This document shows, piece after piece, positions 21,963 to 57,941 of a DNA stretch of 64,000 nt. Position numbers and translations under genes: made by a program. Under the pieces are notes generated by a model. The model saw only the letters and a program-made list of their open reading frames with translations. It was not told the DNA's origin and ran no database searches. Numbering within the stretch: the stretch's first letter is position 1; each line of letters starts with the position of its first letter. This DNA is from an uncultured Gammaproteobacteria bacterium (GTDB taxonomy: Bacteria; Patescibacteriota; Patescibacteriia; GWA2-47-26). The DNA lies in assembly GCA_964532925.1 (NCBI GenBank), contig CAZHIP010000001.1:11227-75226 (forward strand), given 5' to 3'.

Positions 21963-23174
21963 ATGAAAACGTACCCTTATTTCTTCGTCTTAGGCCGTAA
22001 TCCAGCGCTTTCTTTAGCGGAAATTTTGGCTGCCTTCCCGGGAAGCCATGTTGCTCAATTGGGCAAAGAGGTCGTCATTATTGAGGCACTTGAGCCAATT
22101 ACCATAGAAATGGCTCGAAAACTCGGTGGTACAGTCAAATACGGCACGATTATTGGTACTGCAGCCGGTGCCGAGGAGATTTTGGAAGGCTGCGAGAAAA
22201 TCGTGTCTGAGCTCAAAGAAGAGCGCAAGATCTTTGGATTGAGCATTTATCCGGTTTTTGGCGCTGATATGCGCGTAAAAGCCTATGAAAAGCTCGGGTT
22301 TACCCTCAAACGCCGCATTAAAGATGCTGGTGGATCTGGCCGCTTGGTTACAGCAAAAACCCCTACATTGTCGGCAGTAGTTGTCGAAAAGAACCACTTA
22401 CTCACCCGTGGTGCAGAAATCGTCCTTATTCCAACACTCAACAACGTCCATGTGGGTAAAACTCTGGCCGTCCAAGAGTTCGAGGCCCAGTCACACCGCG
22501 ACTTCGGCCGCCCTGAACGCCGTATGGATGTTGGTATGGTGCCGGTCCAGCTTGCCAAGATCATGATCAACCTCGCGCACCCAAAAGTGAGCGACAATAT
22601 CCTTGACCCATTCTGTGGACTCGGCACTATTTTGTCCGAAGCCGTTGCCATGGGGTTTCATAACATAATTGGCACTGACAAAGAAGAAGCAATGGTCGAC
22701 GCGACCGAGAAAAATTTGGCGTGGCTCACTTCACAAAAGGGGATCCAAGCAGATTTGGTAGACTTGCAACTCTTTGCGTCGCCAGTAGAACACATTTCCG
22801 AACGTCTTGGTCGCAACACCGTGAATGCGGTGATCACCGAGCCATACTTGGGGCCAATCAAAGCCAGCGAACAAGGAGATTACCCAGTCGAAGACCTCAC
22901 CCAGCTCTACATTCGTGCGTTTGAACAGCTGTCGATTCTTGTTCACTCTGGTGGTCGCGTAGTCTTTATCTTCCCGGCGGTCAAAACTGGACACGCGCTC
23001 GTTAAGACATCAGAAGGCGCACTGCCAGAAATCAAAAAGATGGGTTTCAAGGCTGTGCCACTCTTACCAGAAGCATTGTTTCCAAAATTCAATTTGAAAA
23101 ACTCCTACTCCATTGTCTACTCTCGTCCAGAACAAAAAGTTATCCGCGAAATTCTGGTGTTCGAAAAGCGATAA
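21963..23174 (+). CDS. THUMP-like domain plus class I SAM-dependent RNA methyltransferase (m2G/m6A amino-MTase family)
   Basis: Motif I DPFCGLGTILSEAV and an NPPY-like TEPY segment after an N-terminal domain of about 180 aa. Confidence 0.5.
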   Translation: MKTYPYFFVLGRNPALSLAEILAAFPGSHVAQLGKEVVIIEALEPITIEMARKLGGTVKYGTIIGTAAGAEEILEGCEKIVSELKEERKIFGLSIYPVFGADMRVKAYEKLGFTLKRRIKDAGGSGRLVTAKTPTLSAVVVEKNHLLTRGAEIVLIPTLNNVHVGKTLAVQEFEAQSHRDFGRPERRMDVGMVPVQLAKIMINLAHPKVSDNILDPFCGLGTILSEAVAMGFHNIIGTDKEEAMVDATEKNLAWLTSQKGIQADLVDLQLFASPVEHISERLGRNTVNAVITEPYLGPIKASEQGDYPVEDLTQLYIRAFEQLSILVHSGGRVVFIFPAVKTGHALVKTSEGALPEIKKMGFKAVPLLPEALFPKFNLKNSYSIVYSRPEQKVIREILVFEKR

Positions 23175-23282: not shown

Positions 23283-23310
23283 AAAACGCTCCCGGGCGGG
23301 AGTTCTTTTG
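23283..23310. terminator. terminator downstream of tRNA-Ile (minus strand), bidirectional
   Basis: gctcccgggcgggag hairpin with T-runs on both strands. Confidence 0.5.
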
Positions 23311-23392: not shown

Positions 23393-23464
23393 TGCGCCTG
23401 CTTGGATTCGAACCAAGAACCAGTCGTGTATAAGACGACTGCTCTGCCGTTGAGCTACAGGCGC
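23393..23464 (-). tRNA. tRNA-Ile (anticodon UAU, predicted AUA decoder); no encoded CCA
   Basis: Reverse complement GCGCCTG-TA-GCTC-AACGGCA-GAGC-A-GTCGT-CTTATAC-ACGAC-TGGTT-CTTGG-TTCGAAT-CCAAG-CAGGCGC-A is a canonical 72-nt cloverleaf with anticodon loop CTTATAC. Confidence 0.8.
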
Positions 23465-23554
23465 GTAATTTCACTGCCTGTATACTACCGCCCCAACTCA
23501 GAAACTTCAATATTATTGCGTTTTAAGGCAAAAAATAGTACGCTTGAAGCTTAT

Positions 23555-25117
23555 ATGAGCACAAAACTACCGCTATTTCTCACAAACCTTGAAGAGCGCC
23601 TCCGTGCGCCAGAGTTTGTATTTATCGCCACTCTTTTGGAGGCGTTTCCAGTCGCCCAGGTTTATTTGGTTGGGGGAGCTGTCCGTGATGCAGCACTTGC
23701 TCGTGAGAGCAAAGACTATGACTTTGTGGTGACTGGTGTTCCGGCCGAAGAGCTCCAGCGCTTTTTGGCTTCTATTGGAATTGTGAACTTTGTCGGTCGC
23801 GTTTTTGGTGTGTTGAAGTTTGTTCCAGATGCGGCATACGACCAAGTGAAGGTGCAAGGCCTCGAACCATTTGATATTGCTTTGCCGCGCACCGAAGTCC
23901 CTGCGGGTACTGGCGGCTACCGCGACGTCGAAGTGCAGTCAGATCACACTATGCGGATTGAAGACGATCTGGGTCGCCGTGACTTTACGGTGAACGCCAT
24001 GGCAGTGAAACTTCTTACGGCAGGTGGGCGTGTGGTGGTCGAAGAGCTGGTTGACCCATTTGGTGGACTCAACGACCTCGAGAAGAAGCTTATTCGTGCA
24101 GTCGGAGAGGCCGAGACGCGTTTCCAAGAAGACTACACCCGCATGCTCCGCGCACTTCGGCTGGCGGTGCAGCTTGGTTTCAAAATTGAACCCGTAACAC
24201 ACGGCGCGATCGAAAAACTCATCGGTCATATCGACGACATGCGCGACGGCGTGCACTTGGTGCCGCGTGAAACCATTGCGAAAGAACTCATCCGTGCGTA
24301 TGTAGCCAAACCACTAGCGGCATTCGATCTCGCCGAAGAGCTCGGCATTCATCGCGTGCTGTTTCCTGAATTCGCGGCGATGAAAACTTGTCCGCAGCCA
24401 CATGAATGGCATGCTGAAGGTGATGTGTTCACGCACACACGACTCGCGATGACTCACCTGGGCTCAAAAGAGTTCGCAGAATTTTTTGGTGATGCAGAAT
24501 GGGACGCGCTTTTGGTTTTTGCGGTACTTTTGCATGACATTGGTAAGCCACCAACACTCAAAACGCCAGAGAAAGACGGAACTGACCGTGTCCGCTTCGA
24601 TGGCCACGACGAAGTTGGTGCAAAAATGGTTGGCGTGATTGCTGATCGTCTTAAGTTGTCCTCCATGCCCGAAGGTTCGCGCTATCACATCAACCGCGAT
24701 CACCTCGTGTGGCTCGTGCGCAACCACCTCATCTCCATGAACCCTGCTGACGAAATGCGTTCAACTACGATTGAAAAATATTTTTACAATCCATTAGTCC
24801 CTGGCGAGCATTTACTGCGCCTCACGTTCTGCGACGGCTCGGCATCTTTGCCGGCAAATGGGGGAGCATCTGATTTGAACAATCTTCGTACCCTGGTCGA
24901 CCGCATGAAAAAGGTTGGCATCATGGCCGAGGCCAAGAAGCGTCTGCCAAAACCACTCATCGACGGCATTGTGGTTATGGAAACACTCAATCTGCCACCC
25001 TCGAAGACCATCGGCGACATCCTGAAAGTCCTTCGCGAGGAGCAACTTCTGGGAAACCTGAAGACTCCAGAGGAAGCCATCGAATACTTGCAGAAGGAAT
25101 ACAAAAAAGAGCCCTAG
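23555..25117 (+). CDS. cca: CCA-adding tRNA nucleotidyltransferase with C-terminal HD domain
   Basis: GGAVRD, DLGRRDFTVNAMAV (class II nucleotidyltransferase head) and the HD motif LLHDIGKP. Start moved to the ATG at 23555 so the CDS clears the tRNA. Confidence 0.8.
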   Translation: MSTKLPLFLTNLEERLRAPEFVFIATLLEAFPVAQVYLVGGAVRDAALARESKDYDFVVTGVPAEELQRFLASIGIVNFVGRVFGVLKFVPDAAYDQVKVQGLEPFDIALPRTEVPAGTGGYRDVEVQSDHTMRIEDDLGRRDFTVNAMAVKLLTAGGRVVVEELVDPFGGLNDLEKKLIRAVGEAETRFQEDYTRMLRALRLAVQLGFKIEPVTHGAIEKLIGHIDDMRDGVHLVPRETIAKELIRAYVAKPLAAFDLAEELGIHRVLFPEFAAMKTCPQPHEWHAEGDVFTHTRLAMTHLGSKEFAEFFGDAEWDALLVFAVLLHDIGKPPTLKTPEKDGTDRVRFDGHDEVGAKMVGVIADRLKLSSMPEGSRYHINRDHLVWLVRNHLISMNPADEMRSTTIEKYFYNPLVPGEHLLRLTFCDGSASLPANGGASDLNNLRTLVDRMKKVGIMAEAKKRLPKPLIDGIVVMETLNLPPSKTIGDILKVLREEQLLGNLKTPEEAIEYLQKEYKKEP

Positions 25118-25131: not shown

Positions 25132-25240
25132 ATTATGAAAGAGGCATCATTAATTGACCATAAGAGAAAACAATGGTACCAATAAGCGTTGTTCTTTTTA
25201 TCGGGCTTCAGATAACAACCAACAGCCAAGGAGAATTCTG

Positions 25241-25843
25241 ATGGTACAGGAGATTCGAATTGAGATGCGCATGAGGAACAACATCCTCTATCGCGCGATT
25301 TTCGATAAATGGCCATCGGTTCAGGTTTTCTGTAGGAAATATGAGCTTGATGCGGGAGTAGTTGGTAAACTCTTGAATTTGAAGTGTTCGCCGCTTAACA
25401 AACACGGTGAGTTCCGGTCGATTTGTAAGCGGCTAGCAGCAATCTTCTTCATGGAGTGTCAGGAGCTCTTTCCGTTGCATCTTTATACTGGGCAGAATCC
25501 GCAGGTAGCCATTGAGGTTTCGTTCGCGGAGCTGCCTCGCGGTACCGCAACGTTACTTCAGATTCCTGCGCCCATGACGGTAGAGGATGAGCTTGATCGT
25601 GCGGAATGTGCGCAGGCTATCGAAGATATACTCAAGACGTTGACGCTACGACAACGGCAAGTCTTACATTTGCGTTTTGGTCTTGAGGATGGCCAAGAGC
25701 GGACACTGAAAGAGGTCGGCGATGTTTTGCGGCTGACTCCGGAGCGTGTTCGTCAGATTGAAGCAAGTGGATTGCGTCGCTTGCGTCATCCCGTCCGCCG
25801 GGACATCCTTCGGGAGTTCGCTGGCCTGAAGGAGGACGAGTAG
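25241..25843 (+). CDS. protein with only a sigma-70 region 4 domain (RpoD C-terminus-like HTH), 200 aa
   Basis: C-terminal LTLRQRQVLHLRFGLEDGQERTLKEVGDVLRLTPERVRQIEASGLRRLRHP closely parallels primary-sigma region 4.2. There is no region 2. ATG at 25241 preceded by AAGGAGA. Confidence 0.55.
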   Translation: MVQEIRIEMRMRNNILYRAIFDKWPSVQVFCRKYELDAGVVGKLLNLKCSPLNKHGEFRSICKRLAAIFFMECQELFPLHLYTGQNPQVAIEVSFAELPRGTATLLQIPAPMTVEDELDRAECAQAIEDILKTLTLRQRQVLHLRFGLEDGQERTLKEVGDVLRLTPERVRQIEASGLRRLRHPVRRDILREFAGLKEDE

Positions 25844-26029: not shown

Positions 26030-26926
26030 ATGATTCTCAACATTACCCCCGAGGAAGCCGGAGAGCGCTTGGACAAGTTTGTCCTTAAGCATTTCCCCGC
26101 ATTTTCACGTTCTCACATTCAGGCGGCCATCAAAAAAGGCGACATTAAAGTTAGCGGTAAAAAAGTAGCACCAAAACACCCGGTTGCGATCGGGGAGACC
26201 ATCAATGTCGAGATGGAAGCACCCACCAAACTCGTTGCCGAACCAAACAAGCTGATCGAAGTGCCGATTATCTTTAAGTGTGTGGATTATCTCGTCGTAA
26301 ATAAACCGTCTGGTATGGTGGTGCACCAAGGTGACGGACATGGCAGTGCAGATACACTCGTAAATGGGCTTTTGGCTCGCTACAAAGAAATCCGCGAGGT
26401 TGGCCCTGACCCCATTCGCCCAGGTATTGTGCATCGCTTGGACCGCGGCGTTTCTGGCGTTATGGTTGTTGCTCGCACACCAGAAATGTATGACTCATTG
26501 GTGAAGCAGTTTTCTGAACACACGGTGTACAAAGAATATGCAGCCGTGGTTGTTCGCACACCAAGTGCGCCAAACGGTATTATTACCGCTCCAGTTGGCC
26601 GCGCAGAAAACGGTGCTGCGACCATCGACGAAGATGGCAAAGAGGCAATTACTGAATACGAAGTTTTGAAATCATGGAATAGCTGTTCACTATTAAAGAT
26701 TGTGACGAAGACCGGCCGCATGCACCAAATCCGCGTGCACATGAACCACATTGGTCACCCGATTATGGGAGAAGAGTGGTATGGCAACCAAGCGCCAAAG
26801 GCAGGCAGCAAAGTAAATGCAAAAGAAAGCCGCCTCATGCTCCACGCCCGCAAACTCGGATTTACGAACTTGAAGGGCGATCACGTTGAATACGAAGCAG
26901 AGTTGCCAGAAGAGTTTGATCGATAA
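26030..26926 (+). CDS. rluD: RluA-family 23S rRNA pseudouridine synthase (RluD-like)
   Basis: N-terminal S4 domain; catalytic HRLDRGVSGVMVVAR; 298 aa. Confidence 0.85.
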   Translation: MILNITPEEAGERLDKFVLKHFPAFSRSHIQAAIKKGDIKVSGKKVAPKHPVAIGETINVEMEAPTKLVAEPNKLIEVPIIFKCVDYLVVNKPSGMVVHQGDGHGSADTLVNGLLARYKEIREVGPDPIRPGIVHRLDRGVSGVMVVARTPEMYDSLVKQFSEHTVYKEYAAVVVRTPSAPNGIITAPVGRAENGAATIDEDGKEAITEYEVLKSWNSCSLLKIVTKTGRMHQIRVHMNHIGHPIMGEEWYGNQAPKAGSKVNAKESRLMLHARKLGFTNLKGDHVEYEAELPEEFDR

Positions 26927-40848: not shown

Positions 40849-41250
40849 CCAGATGACCGGGCGACCGCTGTAGAGCAATCTATAGAGGAAAGTCCGAACA
40901 CCAATTTTGGCGCAAGCCAGAGGAAAACGGTACCATCTAACGGATGGGCAGTCTGACATGGATAACTCTCACGAGGAAACCGTGCTGACGGATTAGTACC
41001 ACAGAGACAATACTAGCTCGAGCGCAAGCTTGGGTGAACGGTGAAAAGTGAGGCGGTGTTACGTTGCGACTCTAAAGGTTTATGCGTGTTGCTACGCCTC
41101 TCGCTCTGCAGTAATGCAGAAACGTGGAAAACCCTACCTGGTGCAAGTCTTTATGACGCATGAGGCTGTACGCGAGTGCAGTCCCAGAGAGATGGTCGTC
41201 CATTTGCTTCGGCAGAGGACAGAATTCGGCTTACAGGTCACCTGGACACC
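40849..41250 (+). ncRNA. rnpB: RNase P RNA (bacterial type A)
   Basis: Conserved P4 strands AGGAAAGTCCG (5') and ACAGAATTCGGCTTA (3'); a GGTACC..TAACGG..GGG region in the P8/P9 position; P1 pairing CCAGATGACC/GGTCACCTGG; followed by a terminator. Confidence 0.8.
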
Positions 41251-54500: not shown

Positions 54501-57500
54501 TTAGCATTTGATGCCGATCCAGACTGGTGCGCTATCGACTTCAACGGTTGCCCCAAAGTCGGCAGGGGTTTCGGCATCAACAATTGTAATGTTTGTAGCC
54601 AATGTGCCTTTTGTGAGCTCTGCATTGAAGTGTTGTATGGCATGTACCACCATCTCATTTTCGCTCTGGATGAGAATACCAACGCGATCTTGTGGCGTAA
54701 GGCCTGCTTTTTTGCGCGTGTCGTTGATCTGGCGCGAGAGTTCGCGGACCAGCCCAAGCTCGGTGAGTTCTGGGGTGAGAACGATGTCCAAACCAACCGT
54801 GGCTTCGCTAACAGCCTTGTTGGGCCATGATTCTGGGATAGATTTCAGAAGTTCAACTTTTTGCACATTTACTTCATCGGCGACAATTTCCAAAAGTTCT
54901 TCTGAGAGTTTGGTGCCGGTAACTGCCAAAGAGGCGAGTGGTTGGCGGACCTTCATTTTGTTTTCGGCGCGCAACGAGTGTGCGGCTTCGACAATGGCAC
55001 GGACAGTGTCCATCTCGTGAACAATTGTAGTGTTCGCGTGTTTTTTGTTTGCAGTTGGCCACTCACTCAAGTGAACCGATTCTTGTTCGCCACCAACTTC
55101 TTGGTACATATGTTCTGCGAGGAATGGAGTGAACGGTGCCAAGAGTTCGGCAAGTGTTATAAGTGCGTAGCGAGTGGTGGCAAGTGCAGCATCTTTATCA
55201 GCACCTTCATCTTTGAAGCGGTCGCGTGAGCGACGCAAGTACCAGGTTGAGAGGTCGTTAATGAATGGTGCAAATAATATTGCGGCCTGACGTACTTCGT
55301 ATTTTTCAAGTGCTGTCGTGGCTTCGGCTACCAGCTCGTTCAGTTTTGCAAGAATCCAGACATCAAGCGGATGCTTCGTGCTCGGTTGTTTGTCTGTATT
55401 TTTTGTTGCGTACATTTGGTAGAACGAGAGCACGTTGCCGAGTGTCATGAGCACACGGTTCATGTCACCAACGCCGCGGTCGGAGAATCGAGATTCTTCG
55501 GCCTCAACGGATGGAGAGGTGAGGAGATAGAGGCGCAGCGCATCAGCGCCGTATTTGTTTATGATCTCTTCGGGTTCTGGATAGTTTTTGAGGCGCTTGG
55601 ACATTTTGCGACCATCTTCGGCGAGTAAGATGCCGTTGACAATACAGTTTTTGAACGATGATTTTCCAAAGAGGGCAACACTAAGCACGAGCATGGTGTA
55701 AAACCAGCCACGCGTCTGATCAATACCTTCCGCAATGAATTCGCCGGGGAAAGAATGTTCAAAACCAGCCTTGTCTTCAAATGGGTAGTGCTTTGAAGCA
55801 TACGGCATGGCACCCGATTCAAACCAGCAGTCGAGTACTTCCTCGATGCGAGTCATTGTTCCGCCGCAACTCTTCTCGCACGGCCACGTCACCGCATCAA
55901 TTACGGGGCGATGTAGGTTGATTTCGCCAGCCTCGTTTACGAGTGTACCAAGAAACGGAATCTCAATAGGTGTCGCAAACTCTGGATACGTAAGGTCCTG
56001 TACACCATGTGCCGTTTTTGCGCTCATTGCCCACAAAACCATGAGGAGTGGGTCGCCATGCGAAACAATCAAGATCGTTTCGTTTTCGTGACCAGCATCA
56101 ATTGCCTTGATTGTTGTCATCATGCGCACCACCAGTTCTGACCAGGTTTCATTTTCGCCAATCTTTTTTTGGAAGCGTTCTTCTTGGACGGAGAATTGTG
56201 ATTGGTGCGCGCTAACTGGTTTGCCGTCAAAGCCAGGTAAGTTGAATTCGTGTAATCCAGTGTTTGTTTCTACAGGTAAGCCTAATGTTTCAGCAACAAT
56301 GGTGGCAGTTTCTTGCGTGCGGAAAAATGGTGAAGCAATGATCTTGGTGACGCCTTTGGTTTTTAATTCCTCACCAGCTTTTTTTGCACGAGCCTGACCA
56401 TTTTTTGTCAGCGGATATTGAGCGCTTGTTTCAAGTGATGCACTAATAACATCTTGAGTGTTTGATTCGCTTTCACCGTGACGCATGAAGATAAACGTAT
56501 TGCGCTTGGTGGCCTTTTTGAGGAGTGTCTCGACGGATGGAACACACTCGACGTGTTTGCATTCGTTACACTGCCAGACGGGTAGCGGTGTACCCCAGTA
56601 GCGGTTACGGGAAATTGCCCAATCGCGTGCTTCGCTAATCCAGTTACCAAAACGACCGCCACCAACATGTTCGGGCACCCAGTTGATCTTTTTATTTGCC
56701 GTTACGAGGTCATCGCGCATTTCGGAGACGCGGACAAACCATGTGTCGATGGCCTTATAGAGAAGCGGGCTATCACAGCGCCAGCAGTGTGGATAGGAGT
56801 GAGTTGTTGTGGTTTTATGGAGGAGCTTTTCGCCCAGAGCCTCCATGATAAGTGGGTTGGTCTTTTTGAAAAACATGCCTTCGTATGGCGCGACAAGCTT
56901 CGTGAAGTGGCCGTTGCCATCAAGCGGATCAACCATTGGAATATGATTGGCAGAAGCGAGTTTGAAGTCATCTTCGCCAAACGCTGGAGCAATGTGGACA
57001 ATGCCCGTACCATCTGTCGTCGTGACGAAATCTGCAACGTGCACTTTGAATGCACCTTCGCTTGCTTTGTCAGCAAAGAAACCAAAGAGTGGCTCGTAGG
57101 TGATGCCAGCTAGAGTAGAGCCTTTTCGTTCTGTAAGAGCTTCGTATTCGCCAGGGAACGATGAAAGGCGATCTTTTGCTACGATGAGTTGTTCACAATT
57201 TACCACAATAGTGGTGTAAGTGATGTCAGCCCCAACCGCCAATGCCATGTTCGCAGGCAATGTCCATGGAGTGGTGGTCCAGGCTACGAGGTATGTTGGT
57301 TTCGAGAATTTTTTGTCGGTGATTTTAAATTTTACAAACACGGCCGGGTCTTGCACGTCGCGGTATGCACCTGGTTGGTTTACTTCAAAGTTTGAAAGCG
57401 GGGTTGCGCAGCGTGGGCAGTAGGGAAGCACTTTGTTGCCTTTGTAGATTTTTTTGTCTTCGTGAAGGCGTGAGAAAACCCACCAGATGGACTCCATAAA

Positions 57501-57941
57501 TGAAGCGTCCATGGTGCGGTACGGTGTACGCATATCGACCCAGCGGCCGGTGCGCTCAATAGTCTTTTCCCAATCATTTGTGTAGCGGAGCACGATAGAA
57601 CGGCATGCTTCATTAAACTTGGCCATGCCAAGCTTTTCTTCGATATCGCGTTTGCCGGAGATCTTCAAGTCTTTTTCGGTTTCGTATTCCACCGGCAATC
57701 CGTGACAATCCCAGCCCCACTGACGAGGCACGCTATAGCCCTTCATGCTCTTAAAACGCGGAATGACATCTTTTATGGTGCCAGCCAAAATATGGCCATA
57801 ATGTGGTAATCCGGTGGCAAACGGCGGGCCATCGTAAAAGACAAACTCACCGTTCGGTGACTTCTTGGTTAAGGTCTTTTCGAAGATGCCTTTTTCCTTC
57901 CAATTCGTGAGTATTTCTTGTTCGCGTTCTGGTATTGACAT
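54501..57941 (-). CDS. ileS: isoleucyl-tRNA synthetase (type 2) carrying an inserted histidine-phosphatase (PGAM-like) domain
   Basis: HIGH-class PFATGLPHYGHIL, WAISRNRYWGTPLPVW, KMSKR. Residues ~480-667 (FIFMRHGESESN ... RTQETA ... SHGD) form a histidine-phosphatase-like domain between WQCNEC and CEKSCGG, before LHRPVIDA/WFESG. Total 1146 aa. Confidence 0.9.
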   Translation of the reverse strand: MSIPEREQEILTNWKEKGIFEKTLTKKSPNGEFVFYDGPPFATGLPHYGHILAGTIKDVIPRFKSMKGYSVPRQWGWDCHGLPVEYETEKDLKISGKRDIEEKLGMAKFNEACRSIVLRYTNDWEKTIERTGRWVDMRTPYRTMDASFMESIWWVFSRLHEDKKIYKGNKVLPYCPRCATPLSNFEVNQPGAYRDVQDPAVFVKFKITDKKFSKPTYLVAWTTTPWTLPANMALAVGADITYTTIVVNCEQLIVAKDRLSSFPGEYEALTERKGSTLAGITYEPLFGFFADKASEGAFKVHVADFVTTTDGTGIVHIAPAFGEDDFKLASANHIPMVDPLDGNGHFTKLVAPYEGMFFKKTNPLIMEALGEKLLHKTTTTHSYPHCWRCDSPLLYKAIDTWFVRVSEMRDDLVTANKKINWVPEHVGGGRFGNWISEARDWAISRNRYWGTPLPVWQCNECKHVECVPSVETLLKKATKRNTFIFMRHGESESNTQDVISASLETSAQYPLTKNGQARAKKAGEELKTKGVTKIIASPFFRTQETATIVAETLGLPVETNTGLHEFNLPGFDGKPVSAHQSQFSVQEERFQKKIGENETWSELVVRMMTTIKAIDAGHENETILIVSHGDPLLMVLWAMSAKTAHGVQDLTYPEFATPIEIPFLGTLVNEAGEINLHRPVIDAVTWPCEKSCGGTMTRIEEVLDCWFESGAMPYASKHYPFEDKAGFEHSFPGEFIAEGIDQTRGWFYTMLVLSVALFGKSSFKNCIVNGILLAEDGRKMSKRLKNYPEPEEIINKYGADALRLYLLTSPSVEAEESRFSDRGVGDMNRVLMTLGNVLSFYQMYATKNTDKQPSTKHPLDVWILAKLNELVAEATTALEKYEVRQAAILFAPFINDLSTWYLRRSRDRFKDEGADKDAALATTRYALITLAELLAPFTPFLAEHMYQEVGGEQESVHLSEWPTANKKHANTTIVHEMDTVRAIVEAAHSLRAENKMKVRQPLASLAVTGTKLSEELLEIVADEVNVQKVELLKSIPESWPNKAVSEATVGLDIVLTPELTELGLVRELSRQINDTRKKAGLTPQDRVGILIQSENEMVVHAIQHFNAELTKGTLATNITIVDAETPADFGATVEVDSAPVWIGIKC

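Follow-up and report, generated by a model that had tools for sequence, protein, structure and literature searches.

How is the isoleucine codon AUA read, with AUG avoided, in an organism whose tRNA gene for this codon encodes a UAU anticodon? Lysidine is regarded as the bacterial solution to this problem, and TilS is treated as essential throughout bacteria, with exceptions in few, scattered genomes. The canonical tRNA-Ile2(CAU)/TilS system shares the AUA codon, the amino acid isoleucine, and the role of a minor isoacceptor with the tRNA-Ile(UAU) gene described here. In the canonical tRNA, however, C34 must be modified before isoleucyl-tRNA synthetase (IleRS) accepts it, whereas the gene described here has T34. 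The gene lies in a 64-kb stretch of DNA, the whole of which was analyzed and is referred to as the window.

The tRNA-Ile(UAU) gene is 72 nt long and occupies positions 23393-23464 on the minus strand. ARAGORN assigned it the isotype Ile with anticodon tat, and the Rfam model RF00005 matched end-to-end on the same 72 nt with a score of 71.1 bits (E = 1.5e-13), similar to the scores of the window's three other tRNAs. The sequence, GCGCCUGUAGCUCAACGGCAGAGCAGUCGUCUUAUACACGACUGGUUCUUGGUUCGAAUCCAAGCAGGCGCA, contains the anticodon loop CUUAUAC (C32, U33, U34, A35, U36, A37, and C38) and the discriminator base A73. Its minimum free energy is -30.2 kcal/mol, compared with -18.5 +/- 2.8 kcal/mol in 200 shuffles (z = -4.18). 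Both programs therefore agree with the original prediction of a canonical minus-strand fold with the loop CTTATAC and anticodon UAU, and ARAGORN assigned no other anticodon or fold at these coordinates. The 3' flank of the gene reads TTTGAT, so that CCA is not encoded, as had also been predicted. Among the other tRNAs of the window, tRNA-Val(GAC) and tRNA-Leu(CAG) have an encoded CCA, and tRNA-Arg(CCG) does not.

TAT and CAT are a single base apart, and the anticodon could in principle reflect a sequencing error, a recent C-to-T change in what had been the anticodon of tRNA-Ile2(CAU) or tRNA-Met, or the decay of a pseudogene. A pattern of the anticodon arm in which position 34 was N was run against metagenome contigs and returned at least 120 stretches; T34 was present in 120 of 120 among the matches listed, with no C, G, or A. 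The full homolog set comprised at least 130 genes from independent assemblies, with 86 distinct core sequences, and 68 distinct 72-nt sequences were used for covariation. Among the matches listed, all 130 genes have T34, as does the window gene, and not the C that is the substrate of TilS. Because the search pattern fixed the anticodon arm, part of the invariance seen there in the metagenome set follows from the search itself, and only the loci reached via cca or ftsH (L001-L011 and L212-L217) are free of this constraint. In these loci, the same CUUAUAC loop is carried by a different stem, which is CCAAG/CUUGG in L009 and L212. Across the 68 distinct sequences, the cloverleaf pairs were kept in 99.9% of cells, and both-sided changes occurred in 11 of 21 pairs (203 cells); covariation was seen in every one of the seven acceptor pairs and in three pairs of the T stem. 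The covariation score was 0.415, versus 0.124 in shuffles, with none of 500 shuffles reaching the observed value, and a control in which the 3' partners were slid by 1 to 3 columns gave pairing of 28 to 45%. A sequencing error in the anticodon loop, named in the original prediction as a source of doubt, is excluded by T34 across the homologs and by the covariation. With compensatory substitutions maintaining the stems and an Rfam score on par with those of the other tRNAs in the window, any account of the gene as an artifact or as decaying is almost certainly wrong.

The homologs came from a broad range of related genomes. tRNA-Ile(tat) adjoins cca in every relative reached via the Cca protein, down to 47% identity: at Cca identities of 90% (L001), 85% (L002-L004), 67% (L005), 56% (L006-L007), and 52% (L009-L011) and, at 47 to 48%, in the Uhrbacteria assemblies GCA_016187515.1 and GCA_001791415.1 (within L212-L214). 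The gene was found in named Uhrbacteria, Azambacteria, and Giovannonibacteria genomes, and by its sequence distribution it is best described as a lineage-wide trait of Parcubacteria-type CPR (Uhrbacteria, Azambacteria, and Giovannonibacteria) rather than a peculiarity of one genome. Bacterial tRNA-Ile(UAU) genes have been recorded in about 17 to 19 genomes (PMC8450103, PMC4013482), and the known carriers include Mycoplasma, Bifidobacterium, Neorickettsia, and a few bacteria with tilS, in addition to the archaea Nanoarchaeum and Korarchaeum (PMC8450103, PMC4013482, PMC3575796). The rarity ascribed to a native UAU anticodon thus holds for cultured bacteria but not for the host lineage, where such a gene is the norm, with at least 130 examples. 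The nearest tRNAs without a UAU anticodon (Val, Lys, and Ile-GAU) match 51 to 55 of the 72 positions, a generic similarity that did not pick out any one of them as the parent of the family.

The contents of the window itself are those expected of a chromosome. The window contains infB, trx/trxB, leuS, ftsK, recA, efp, epmA, rpsR, ssb, rpsF, cca, and uvrA, together with RluD-like and cmk-like genes, a gene for a T4SS-pilin protein, rnj, ruvA, and ileS. The nearest homologs of its Cca and IleRS proteins, and the nearest FtsH homologs, belong to metagenome-assembled Patescibacteria, the named ones being "Candidatus Uhrbacteria" and other Parcubacteria groups. The window is best read as an ordinary stretch of a Patescibacteria (Uhrbacteria-like) chromosome. 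Rare-codon tRNAs are common cargo of phages, and on one small metagenome contig (L152) the tRNA pattern lies beside an odd tRNA cluster, which would suit a gene that belongs to a mobile element such as a phage or prophage and stands outside the decoding set of the host. In the window, however, the gene lies between rpsF-ssb-rpsR-epmA-efp and cca-rluD-cmk-uvrA, which are core genes in a conserved order; G+C content is even at about 49%, with no break; and the tRNA pattern was absent from 2.9 million viral contigs. A mobile origin is therefore extremely unlikely.

The gene next to tRNA-Ile(UAU), at 23555..25117 on the plus strand, encodes a class II tRNA nucleotidyltransferase with a PolyA_pol head, an RNA-binding domain, and an HD domain (Pfam) and is a candidate for the CCA-adding enzyme. 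Its best NCBIfam matches are CCA nucleotidyltransferases, with scores below the equivalog level (166 against a cutoff of 439 and 141 against a cutoff of 451), and its homologs carry the name CCA tRNA nucleotidyltransferase. A CCA-adding enzyme is needed in this organism because neither tRNA-Ile(UAU) nor tRNA-Arg(CCG) has an encoded CCA. The tRNA gene had been placed immediately upstream of the gene for this enzyme; the two are indeed adjacent, but they are divergent, lying head-to-head and 90 nt apart, and so do not form one transcription unit. In relatives, the orientation is divergent or codirectional, with a gap of 3 to 9 nt between the tRNA and the start of cca in the codirectional cases. 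A functional coupling of the missing CCA to the adjacent cca gene was considered and set aside. The adjacency is kept in L009, where a tRNA-Ile(UAU) gene with an encoded CCA lies 3 nt before cca. Among the matches listed, CCA is encoded in 56 of 130 genes of the family, and cca is near the tRNA in only 16 of 130 loci, ten of which were fetched via cca itself. The adjacency in L009 and the neighbors seen in the wider family therefore leave a functional link unsupported.

The neighbors in the wider family are of a different kind. Among the matches listed, ftsH lies directly upstream of tRNA-Ile(UAU) in 60 of 130 loci, a gene for an RluA-family pseudouridine synthase is nearby in 35 of 130, tRNA-Val(GAC) is in tandem with tRNA-Ile(UAU) in 22 of 130, and rplS is nearby in 18 of 130. 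In the ftsH-linked loci, the tRNA often begins 1 to 9 nt past the ftsH stop codon, and the FtsH protein of this group is that of "Candidatus Azambacteria." A 585-kb contig of the Azambacteria assembly GCA_001774215.1 has the order S1-domain protein, two hypothetical genes, ftsH, tRNA-Ile(UAU), tRNA-Val(GAC), pseudouridine synthase, rplS, tRNA-Leu, and nusA; the Giovannonibacteria assembly GCA_016204885.1 has ftsH, mazEF, and tRNA-Ile(UAU); and in Uhrbacteria the order is tRNA-Val, tRNA-Ile(UAU), cca, rluD, cmk/gmk, and rplS. The Uhrbacteria order looks like the core of the ftsH-linked group with cca inserted, and the divergent layout of the window looks like a further rearrangement. The adjacency of tRNA-Ile(UAU) and cca is conserved among Uhrbacteria-like relatives only, and the usual neighbor in the wider family is ftsH. 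The tRNA genes beside cca are different ones, typically tRNA-Arg(UCG), in other CPR such as Saccharibacteria, Paceibacteria, and Jorgensenbacteria. Among the matches listed in a Cca-alignment scan of genome contigs, identity was at most 48%, many of the relatives were non-CPR, and none had tRNA-Ile(tat) beside cca.

A functional tRNA-Ile(UAU) presupposes that AUA is in use and that it specifies isoleucine. Forty-three credible genes of the window together contain 17431 codons, 99 of which are AUA (5.7 per 1000 and 9% of isoleucine codons), and the codon is present in 35 of the 43 genes, including leuS, ileS, uvrA, ftsK, efp, and rpsF. At this frequency and distribution, a decoder for AUA is required. 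The codon usage check proposed along with the original prediction, run on the window, thus found AUA to be in use. The AUA frequency in Escherichia coli, 4.9 per 1000, is comparable (PMC12514573).

The tRNA could nevertheless be charged with an amino acid other than isoleucine, with AUA reassigned, for example, to methionine. AUA encodes methionine in many mitochondria, and the isotype given by ARAGORN comes from the anticodon alone. In a small sample of 32 positions, ATA codons of the window aligned with Leu in 35%, Ile in 31%, and Met in 2% of cases in homologs, whereas ATG positions aligned with Met in 37%. In ileS, 5 of the only 7 ATA positions were mainly Ile or Val among 119 homologs. 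Across both alignments, ATA positions aligned with Ile, Leu, and Val and contained only 2 to 4% Met, compared with 37 to 39% at ATG positions. The tRNA has A35, U36, A37, A73, U12-A23, C29-G41, and C4-G69, and the 68 homologs show no variation at A73, U12-A23, and C29-G41, while most of them have C4-G69. Position 38 is C, which departs from the A38 of E. coli tRNA-Ile and from the identity set of that species. All of the other elements just listed reportedly belong to the E. coli IleRS identity set defined by Nureki et al. in 1994, and A35, U36, A37, A73, U12-A23, and C29-G41 suit recognition by IleRS. MetRS, for its part, requires CAU according to a passage in PMC12514573. Reassignment of AUA is thus very unlikely, and aminoacylation of tRNA-Ile(UAU) with isoleucine is suggested by the anticodon together with the identity elements. 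The isoleucine-type features bear out the original reading of the gene as a genomically encoded UAU tRNA and point to a route to AUA that is independent of lysidine.

The enzyme presumed to charge this tRNA is encoded at 54501..57941 on the minus strand, 31 kb from the tRNA gene, and is the only IleRS in the window. The protein, of 1146 amino acids, matches the NCBIfam ileS equivalog with 905.7 bits, the next-best matches being mupirocin-resistant MupA/MupB. It contains the PF19302 C-terminal domain, has no Zn-finger domain (Pfam), and carries a histidine-phosphatase domain inserted at residues 484-646. The PF19302 domain, the absence of a Zn finger, and the similarity to MupA/MupB therefore identify it as a type 2 (archaeal/eukaryote-like) IleRS, as its homologs also indicate. 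Two solutions for accepting U34 have been described in tilS-less bacteria with tRNA-Ile(UAU) (Taniguchi et al., PMC3575796). In mycoplasmas, a type 1 IleRS has Trp replaced by Arg or Lys in its Zn-binding domain (Trp905 position), whereas Bifidobacterium and Neorickettsia have a eukaryote-type IleRS, the eukaryotic relatives of which charge psi-A-psi tRNA-Ile (PMC3575796). The predicted architecture of the window's IleRS fits the class able to accept U34. Type 2 IleRS is compatible with a UAU anticodon but not diagnostic of it, because enzymes of this type are common among bacteria (bioRxiv 10.64898/2026.02.03.703510).

The observed gene, fold, conservation, covariation, AUA usage, and IleRS type very probably belong to a functional elongator tRNA-Ile that, with its encoded UAU anticodon, reads AUA as isoleucine without lysidine. 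Whether it does so alone is a separate question. ARAGORN and Rfam detected no CAU tRNA within the 64-kb window, and no PP-loop open reading frame (SGGxDS motif) was found in it. The regions flanking homologous tRNAs, 855 kb in total, contained no normal-looking CAU tRNA, and guaA accounted for all of their PP-loop open reading frames; the lack of tilS there is of little weight, since genomes that all possess the gene would by chance place only about one copy in that much sequence. No TilS domain was found in the Pfam-annotated loci (±10 kb) around the homologs; a scan for the PP-loop motif found one TilS-like open reading frame in the genome loci, in a non-CPR organism (L063, Lachnospiraceae). 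The surroundings of ftsH are also of interest here, since tilS-hpt precedes ftsH in many bacteria. Neither hpt nor tilS was found upstream of ftsH in the ftsH-linked loci, the upstream genes there encoding instead an S1-domain protein, hypothetical proteins, or dprA. These loci show no remnant of a tilS-hpt-ftsH cluster, a suggestive though not a decisive result.

Genomes in which a functional tRNA-Ile(UAU) coexists with tilS and tRNA-Ile2(CAU), so that AUA is read by both LAU and UAU anticodons, have been proposed for Lactobacillus casei/plantarum, Cyanothece, and Ferrimonas (PMC3575796). The data here consist of the 64-kb window, out of a 266-kb contig and a genome probably of about 1 Mb, and of loci of ±10 kb; a tilS gene elsewhere in the genome would be compatible with them. 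Against such an arrangement, the anticodon loop is invariant across lineages whose Cca proteins are 47% and whose FtsH proteins are 65% identical, whereas a redundant gene would be expected to suffer sporadic loss. The genes upstream of ftsH in Azambacteria and Giovannonibacteria (S1-domain protein, hypothetical proteins, or dprA, and not tilS-hpt) and the 855 kb of flanks in which no normal-looking CAU tRNA occurs argue in the same direction. A dual system is a real possibility but is judged rather unlikely. The deep conservation of the gene is the reason for regarding it as nonredundant, and the evidence leans toward tRNA-Ile(UAU) being the sole AUA decoder, in replacement of TilS and lysidine-modified tRNA-Ile2(CAU). 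Much of the Parcubacteria, including at least Uhrbacteria, Azambacteria, and Giovannonibacteria, may have dropped TilS and lysidine and may read AUA with a tRNA-Ile(UAU) of the C32/C38-loop type, charged by a type 2 IleRS with a histidine-phosphatase insert, although the balance tips slightly against so broad a proposal.

A tRNA with U34 that reads AUA must avoid AUG. The 32-38 pair tunes ribosome binding, and C32 together with C38 was found in all 130 genes of the family (among the matches listed), compared with 2 of 187 other tRNAs of the same loci. Because of that influence on ribosome binding, the C32/C38 combination may be part of the decoding solution, and tuning by this unusual loop is one of three ways in which AUG could be avoided. 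A second is a modification of U34. Pus1 modifies the anticodon uridines of eukaryotic psi-A-psi tRNA-Ile, and by analogy the RluA-family synthase that travels with the tRNA gene might modify the anticodon uridines of tRNA-Ile(UAU), which is a weaker possibility. In the window, this synthase (RluD-like, with an S4 domain; Pfam and NCBIfam) is encoded at 26030..26926 on the plus strand and matches TIGR00005 with 238 bits, with a score for the RluD equivalog that is under the cutoff. The third is that U34 stays unmodified, as in Mycoplasma mobile, where discrimination by the organism's own ribosome and competition from tRNA-Met keep the tRNA from AUG (PMC3575796). The original prediction that a different modification strategy is needed to avoid AUG is thus too strict, since the M. 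mobile tRNA does without modification of U34.

Among known systems, the M. mobile tRNA-Ile2(UAU) resembles the tRNA described here in its encoded TAT, in reading AUA without lysidine, and in an A37 suited to t6A (Taniguchi et al. 2013, PMC3575796). The IleRS of M. mobile, however, is of type 1, with Arg865 in place of a conserved Trp in its Zn-binding domain, whereas the enzyme here is of type 2 and has no Zn-binding domain; in addition, experiments on M. mobile showed that tilS is missing, that U34 is unmodified, and that the ribosome discriminates, whereas the window is known from sequence alone. The nearest match in architecture is to Bifidobacterium adolescentis and Neorickettsia sennetsu, which combine tRNA-Ile(UAU) with a type 2 IleRS (PMC3575796, PMC8450103). 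For these two organisms, complete genomes establish that tilS is absent, whereas 64 kb was read here; the histidine-phosphatase insert in the catalytic body also sets the IleRS of the window apart from those of Bifidobacterium and Neorickettsia, and Patescibacteria are unrelated to both. Nanoarchaeum equitans and Korarchaeum cryptofilum are likewise ultrasmall or reduced organisms in which a UAU tRNA, tRNA-Ile3(UAU), stands in for a C34-modification system and IleRS has the type 2 C-terminal organization (PMC8450103), but they are archaea, and the system replaced is TiaS/agmatidine rather than lysidine (PMC8450103).

That tRNA-Ile(TAT) genes abound in the environment was known before, from 371 unique metagenomic sequences with no organism attached (Taniguchi et al., PMC3575796). 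These are probably the same kind of gene as that described here, but the present family, unlike those sequences, is tied to Uhrbacteria, Azambacteria, and Giovannonibacteria genomes and to conserved neighborhoods. What is new is therefore not the kind of gene but the assignment of a large tRNA-Ile(UAU) group to named CPR lineages with conserved synteny, which offers an organismal home for many of the unassigned metagenomic tDNA-Ile(TAT) sequences. Within the literature that could be searched, no paper was found that links lysidine, tilS, or AUA decoding to Patescibacteria, CPR, or Parcubacteria. The assignment to CPR predicts a different way of decoding AUA in a major bacterial radiation, and if TilS has indeed been dropped, CPR would be the largest known bacterial group with non-lysidine AUA decoding; the significance of the finding would grow if surveys show Parcubacteria to be without TilS. 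The combination of a C32/C38-loop tRNA, a type 2 IleRS with a phosphatase insert, and a reduced CPR ribosome provides material for the question of how U34 is kept from AUG. There is also a consequence for annotation, as pipelines that expect tRNA-Ile2(CAU) would score such genomes as lacking an AUA decoder.

The surroundings of the gene suggest how the tRNA might be made. It would be transcribed as its own short unit, possibly from a weak promoter-like element recognized by eye on the minus strand at 23482..23510 (TTGAAG, a 17-nt spacer, and TAGTAT); a consensus scan reported no promoter at 23482..23510, where the element falls under the scan threshold. The element stops 17 nt short of the 5' end of the tRNA, a gap that would imply a short leader cut by RNase P. 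The RNA component of this ribozyme for 5'-end processing (bacterial class A) is encoded in the window at 40849..41249 on the plus strand (RF00010, 159.1 bits) and would trim the 5' end of the transcript. The adjacent nucleotidyltransferase would then add CCA, and the type 2 IleRS encoded 31 kb away would charge the product. A terminator scan returned 3 sites, versus 0.7 expected, one of the three being the anticodon arm of the tRNA itself. The sites also include a G+C-rich hairpin with T-runs on both strands at 23288..23303, about 90 nt beyond the 3' end of the tRNA, which is likely a bidirectional terminator for tRNA-Ile(UAU) and the converging methyltransferase gene.

All of the tRNA-Ile(UAU) genes among the matches listed (130/130) carry a cytosine at both position 32 and position 38 of the anticodon loop, including those found without the search pattern. 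This combination of C32 and C38, which in the window lies in the anticodon arm at 23421-23441, occurs in just 2 of the 187 other tRNAs encoded at the same loci. A tRNA-Ile(UAU) gene of a different subtype occupies the same position in L001 (3536-3607), a relative that shares 90% identity with the window in its Cca protein. The L001 tRNA has the acceptor stem CGGUCCG (C1-G72) and a T stem unlike that of the window tRNA, and the genes upstream of it also differ from those in the window. The C1-G72 type accounts for approximately 13 of the 68 distinct family members among the matches listed, which, together with the differing subtype at L001, suggests that tRNA-Ile(UAU) comprises two sublineages that can replace each other.

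In the most common arrangement among the matches listed, tRNA-Ile(UAU) begins 1 to 9 nt after the stop codon of ftsH and is followed by tRNA-Val(GAC), a gene for an RluA-family pseudouridine synthase, and rplS. Loci with this arrangement include L216 (11846-12732; "Ca. Azambacteria" GCA_001774215.1), L098, L106, L163, L169, L178, L181, and L210; the "Ca. Azambacteria" pseudouridine synthase has 236 amino acids and does not contain an S4 domain. The short spacing and the gene order suggest that ftsH and tRNA-Ile(UAU) are cotranscribed at these loci and that the block of tRNA, pseudouridine synthase, and rplS genes has been conserved over a long time.

The presumed charging enzyme of this tRNA, a type 2 isoleucyl-tRNA synthetase (IleRS; window 54501-57941, minus strand), contains a complete histidine phosphatase domain (His_Phos_1, PGM/SixA-like) at residues 484 to 646 that splits the catalytic body into two halves and preserves both of the catalytic motifs, RHGE and SHG. 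The same insertion is present in approximately 115 of the best 120 IleRS matches, which span many groups of Parcubacteria (Paceibacterota, Niyogi-, Lloyd-, Yonath-, and Zambryskibacteria, and Minisyncoccota) and are labeled by NCBI only as "class I tRNA ligase family protein." A literature search for isoleucyl-tRNA synthetase together with histidine phosphatase found no reports.

The window tRNA gene is convergent with a gene (21963-23174, plus strand) encoding a 403-amino-acid UPF0020/Trm11-Trm14-like methyltransferase of the TIGR01177 family, a putative tRNA guanine-N2 methyltransferase with a syntenic counterpart of approximately 72% identity in the relative L002. Between cca and the RluD-like gene lies an open reading frame (25154-25843, plus strand) for a 229-amino-acid protein with sigma-70 region 4 as its sole domain. 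In the relatives L002, L005, and L006, the RluD-like gene directly follows cca, which marks the 229-amino-acid gene as an insertion in the lineage of the window.

Among the matches listed, the nearest non-CPR homologs of the window Cca came from Nitrospirota/Nitrospiria genome bins (48 to 50% identity; loci L012 and L014), as close as the named Uhrbacteria homologs (47 to 48%), which hints at horizontal transfer of this nucleotidyltransferase. In other CPR genomes among the matches listed (L021, L024, L046, L048, L050, L054, L058, L061, L070, L078, and L091), including those of Saccharibacteria, Paceibacteria, and Jorgensenbacteria, tRNA genes also border cca, and its most frequent tRNA neighbor there is tRNA-Arg(UCG). 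The UCG anticodon of tRNA-Arg is uncommon among bacteria that use ICG. On L152, a 1.7-kb metagenome contig, the tRNA-Ile(UAU) pattern is matched in truncated form next to tightly packed atypical tRNAs (two with CAU anticodons, Leu[AAG], Lys[CUU], and Leu[UAA]) that may represent a phage or mobile-element tRNA array.
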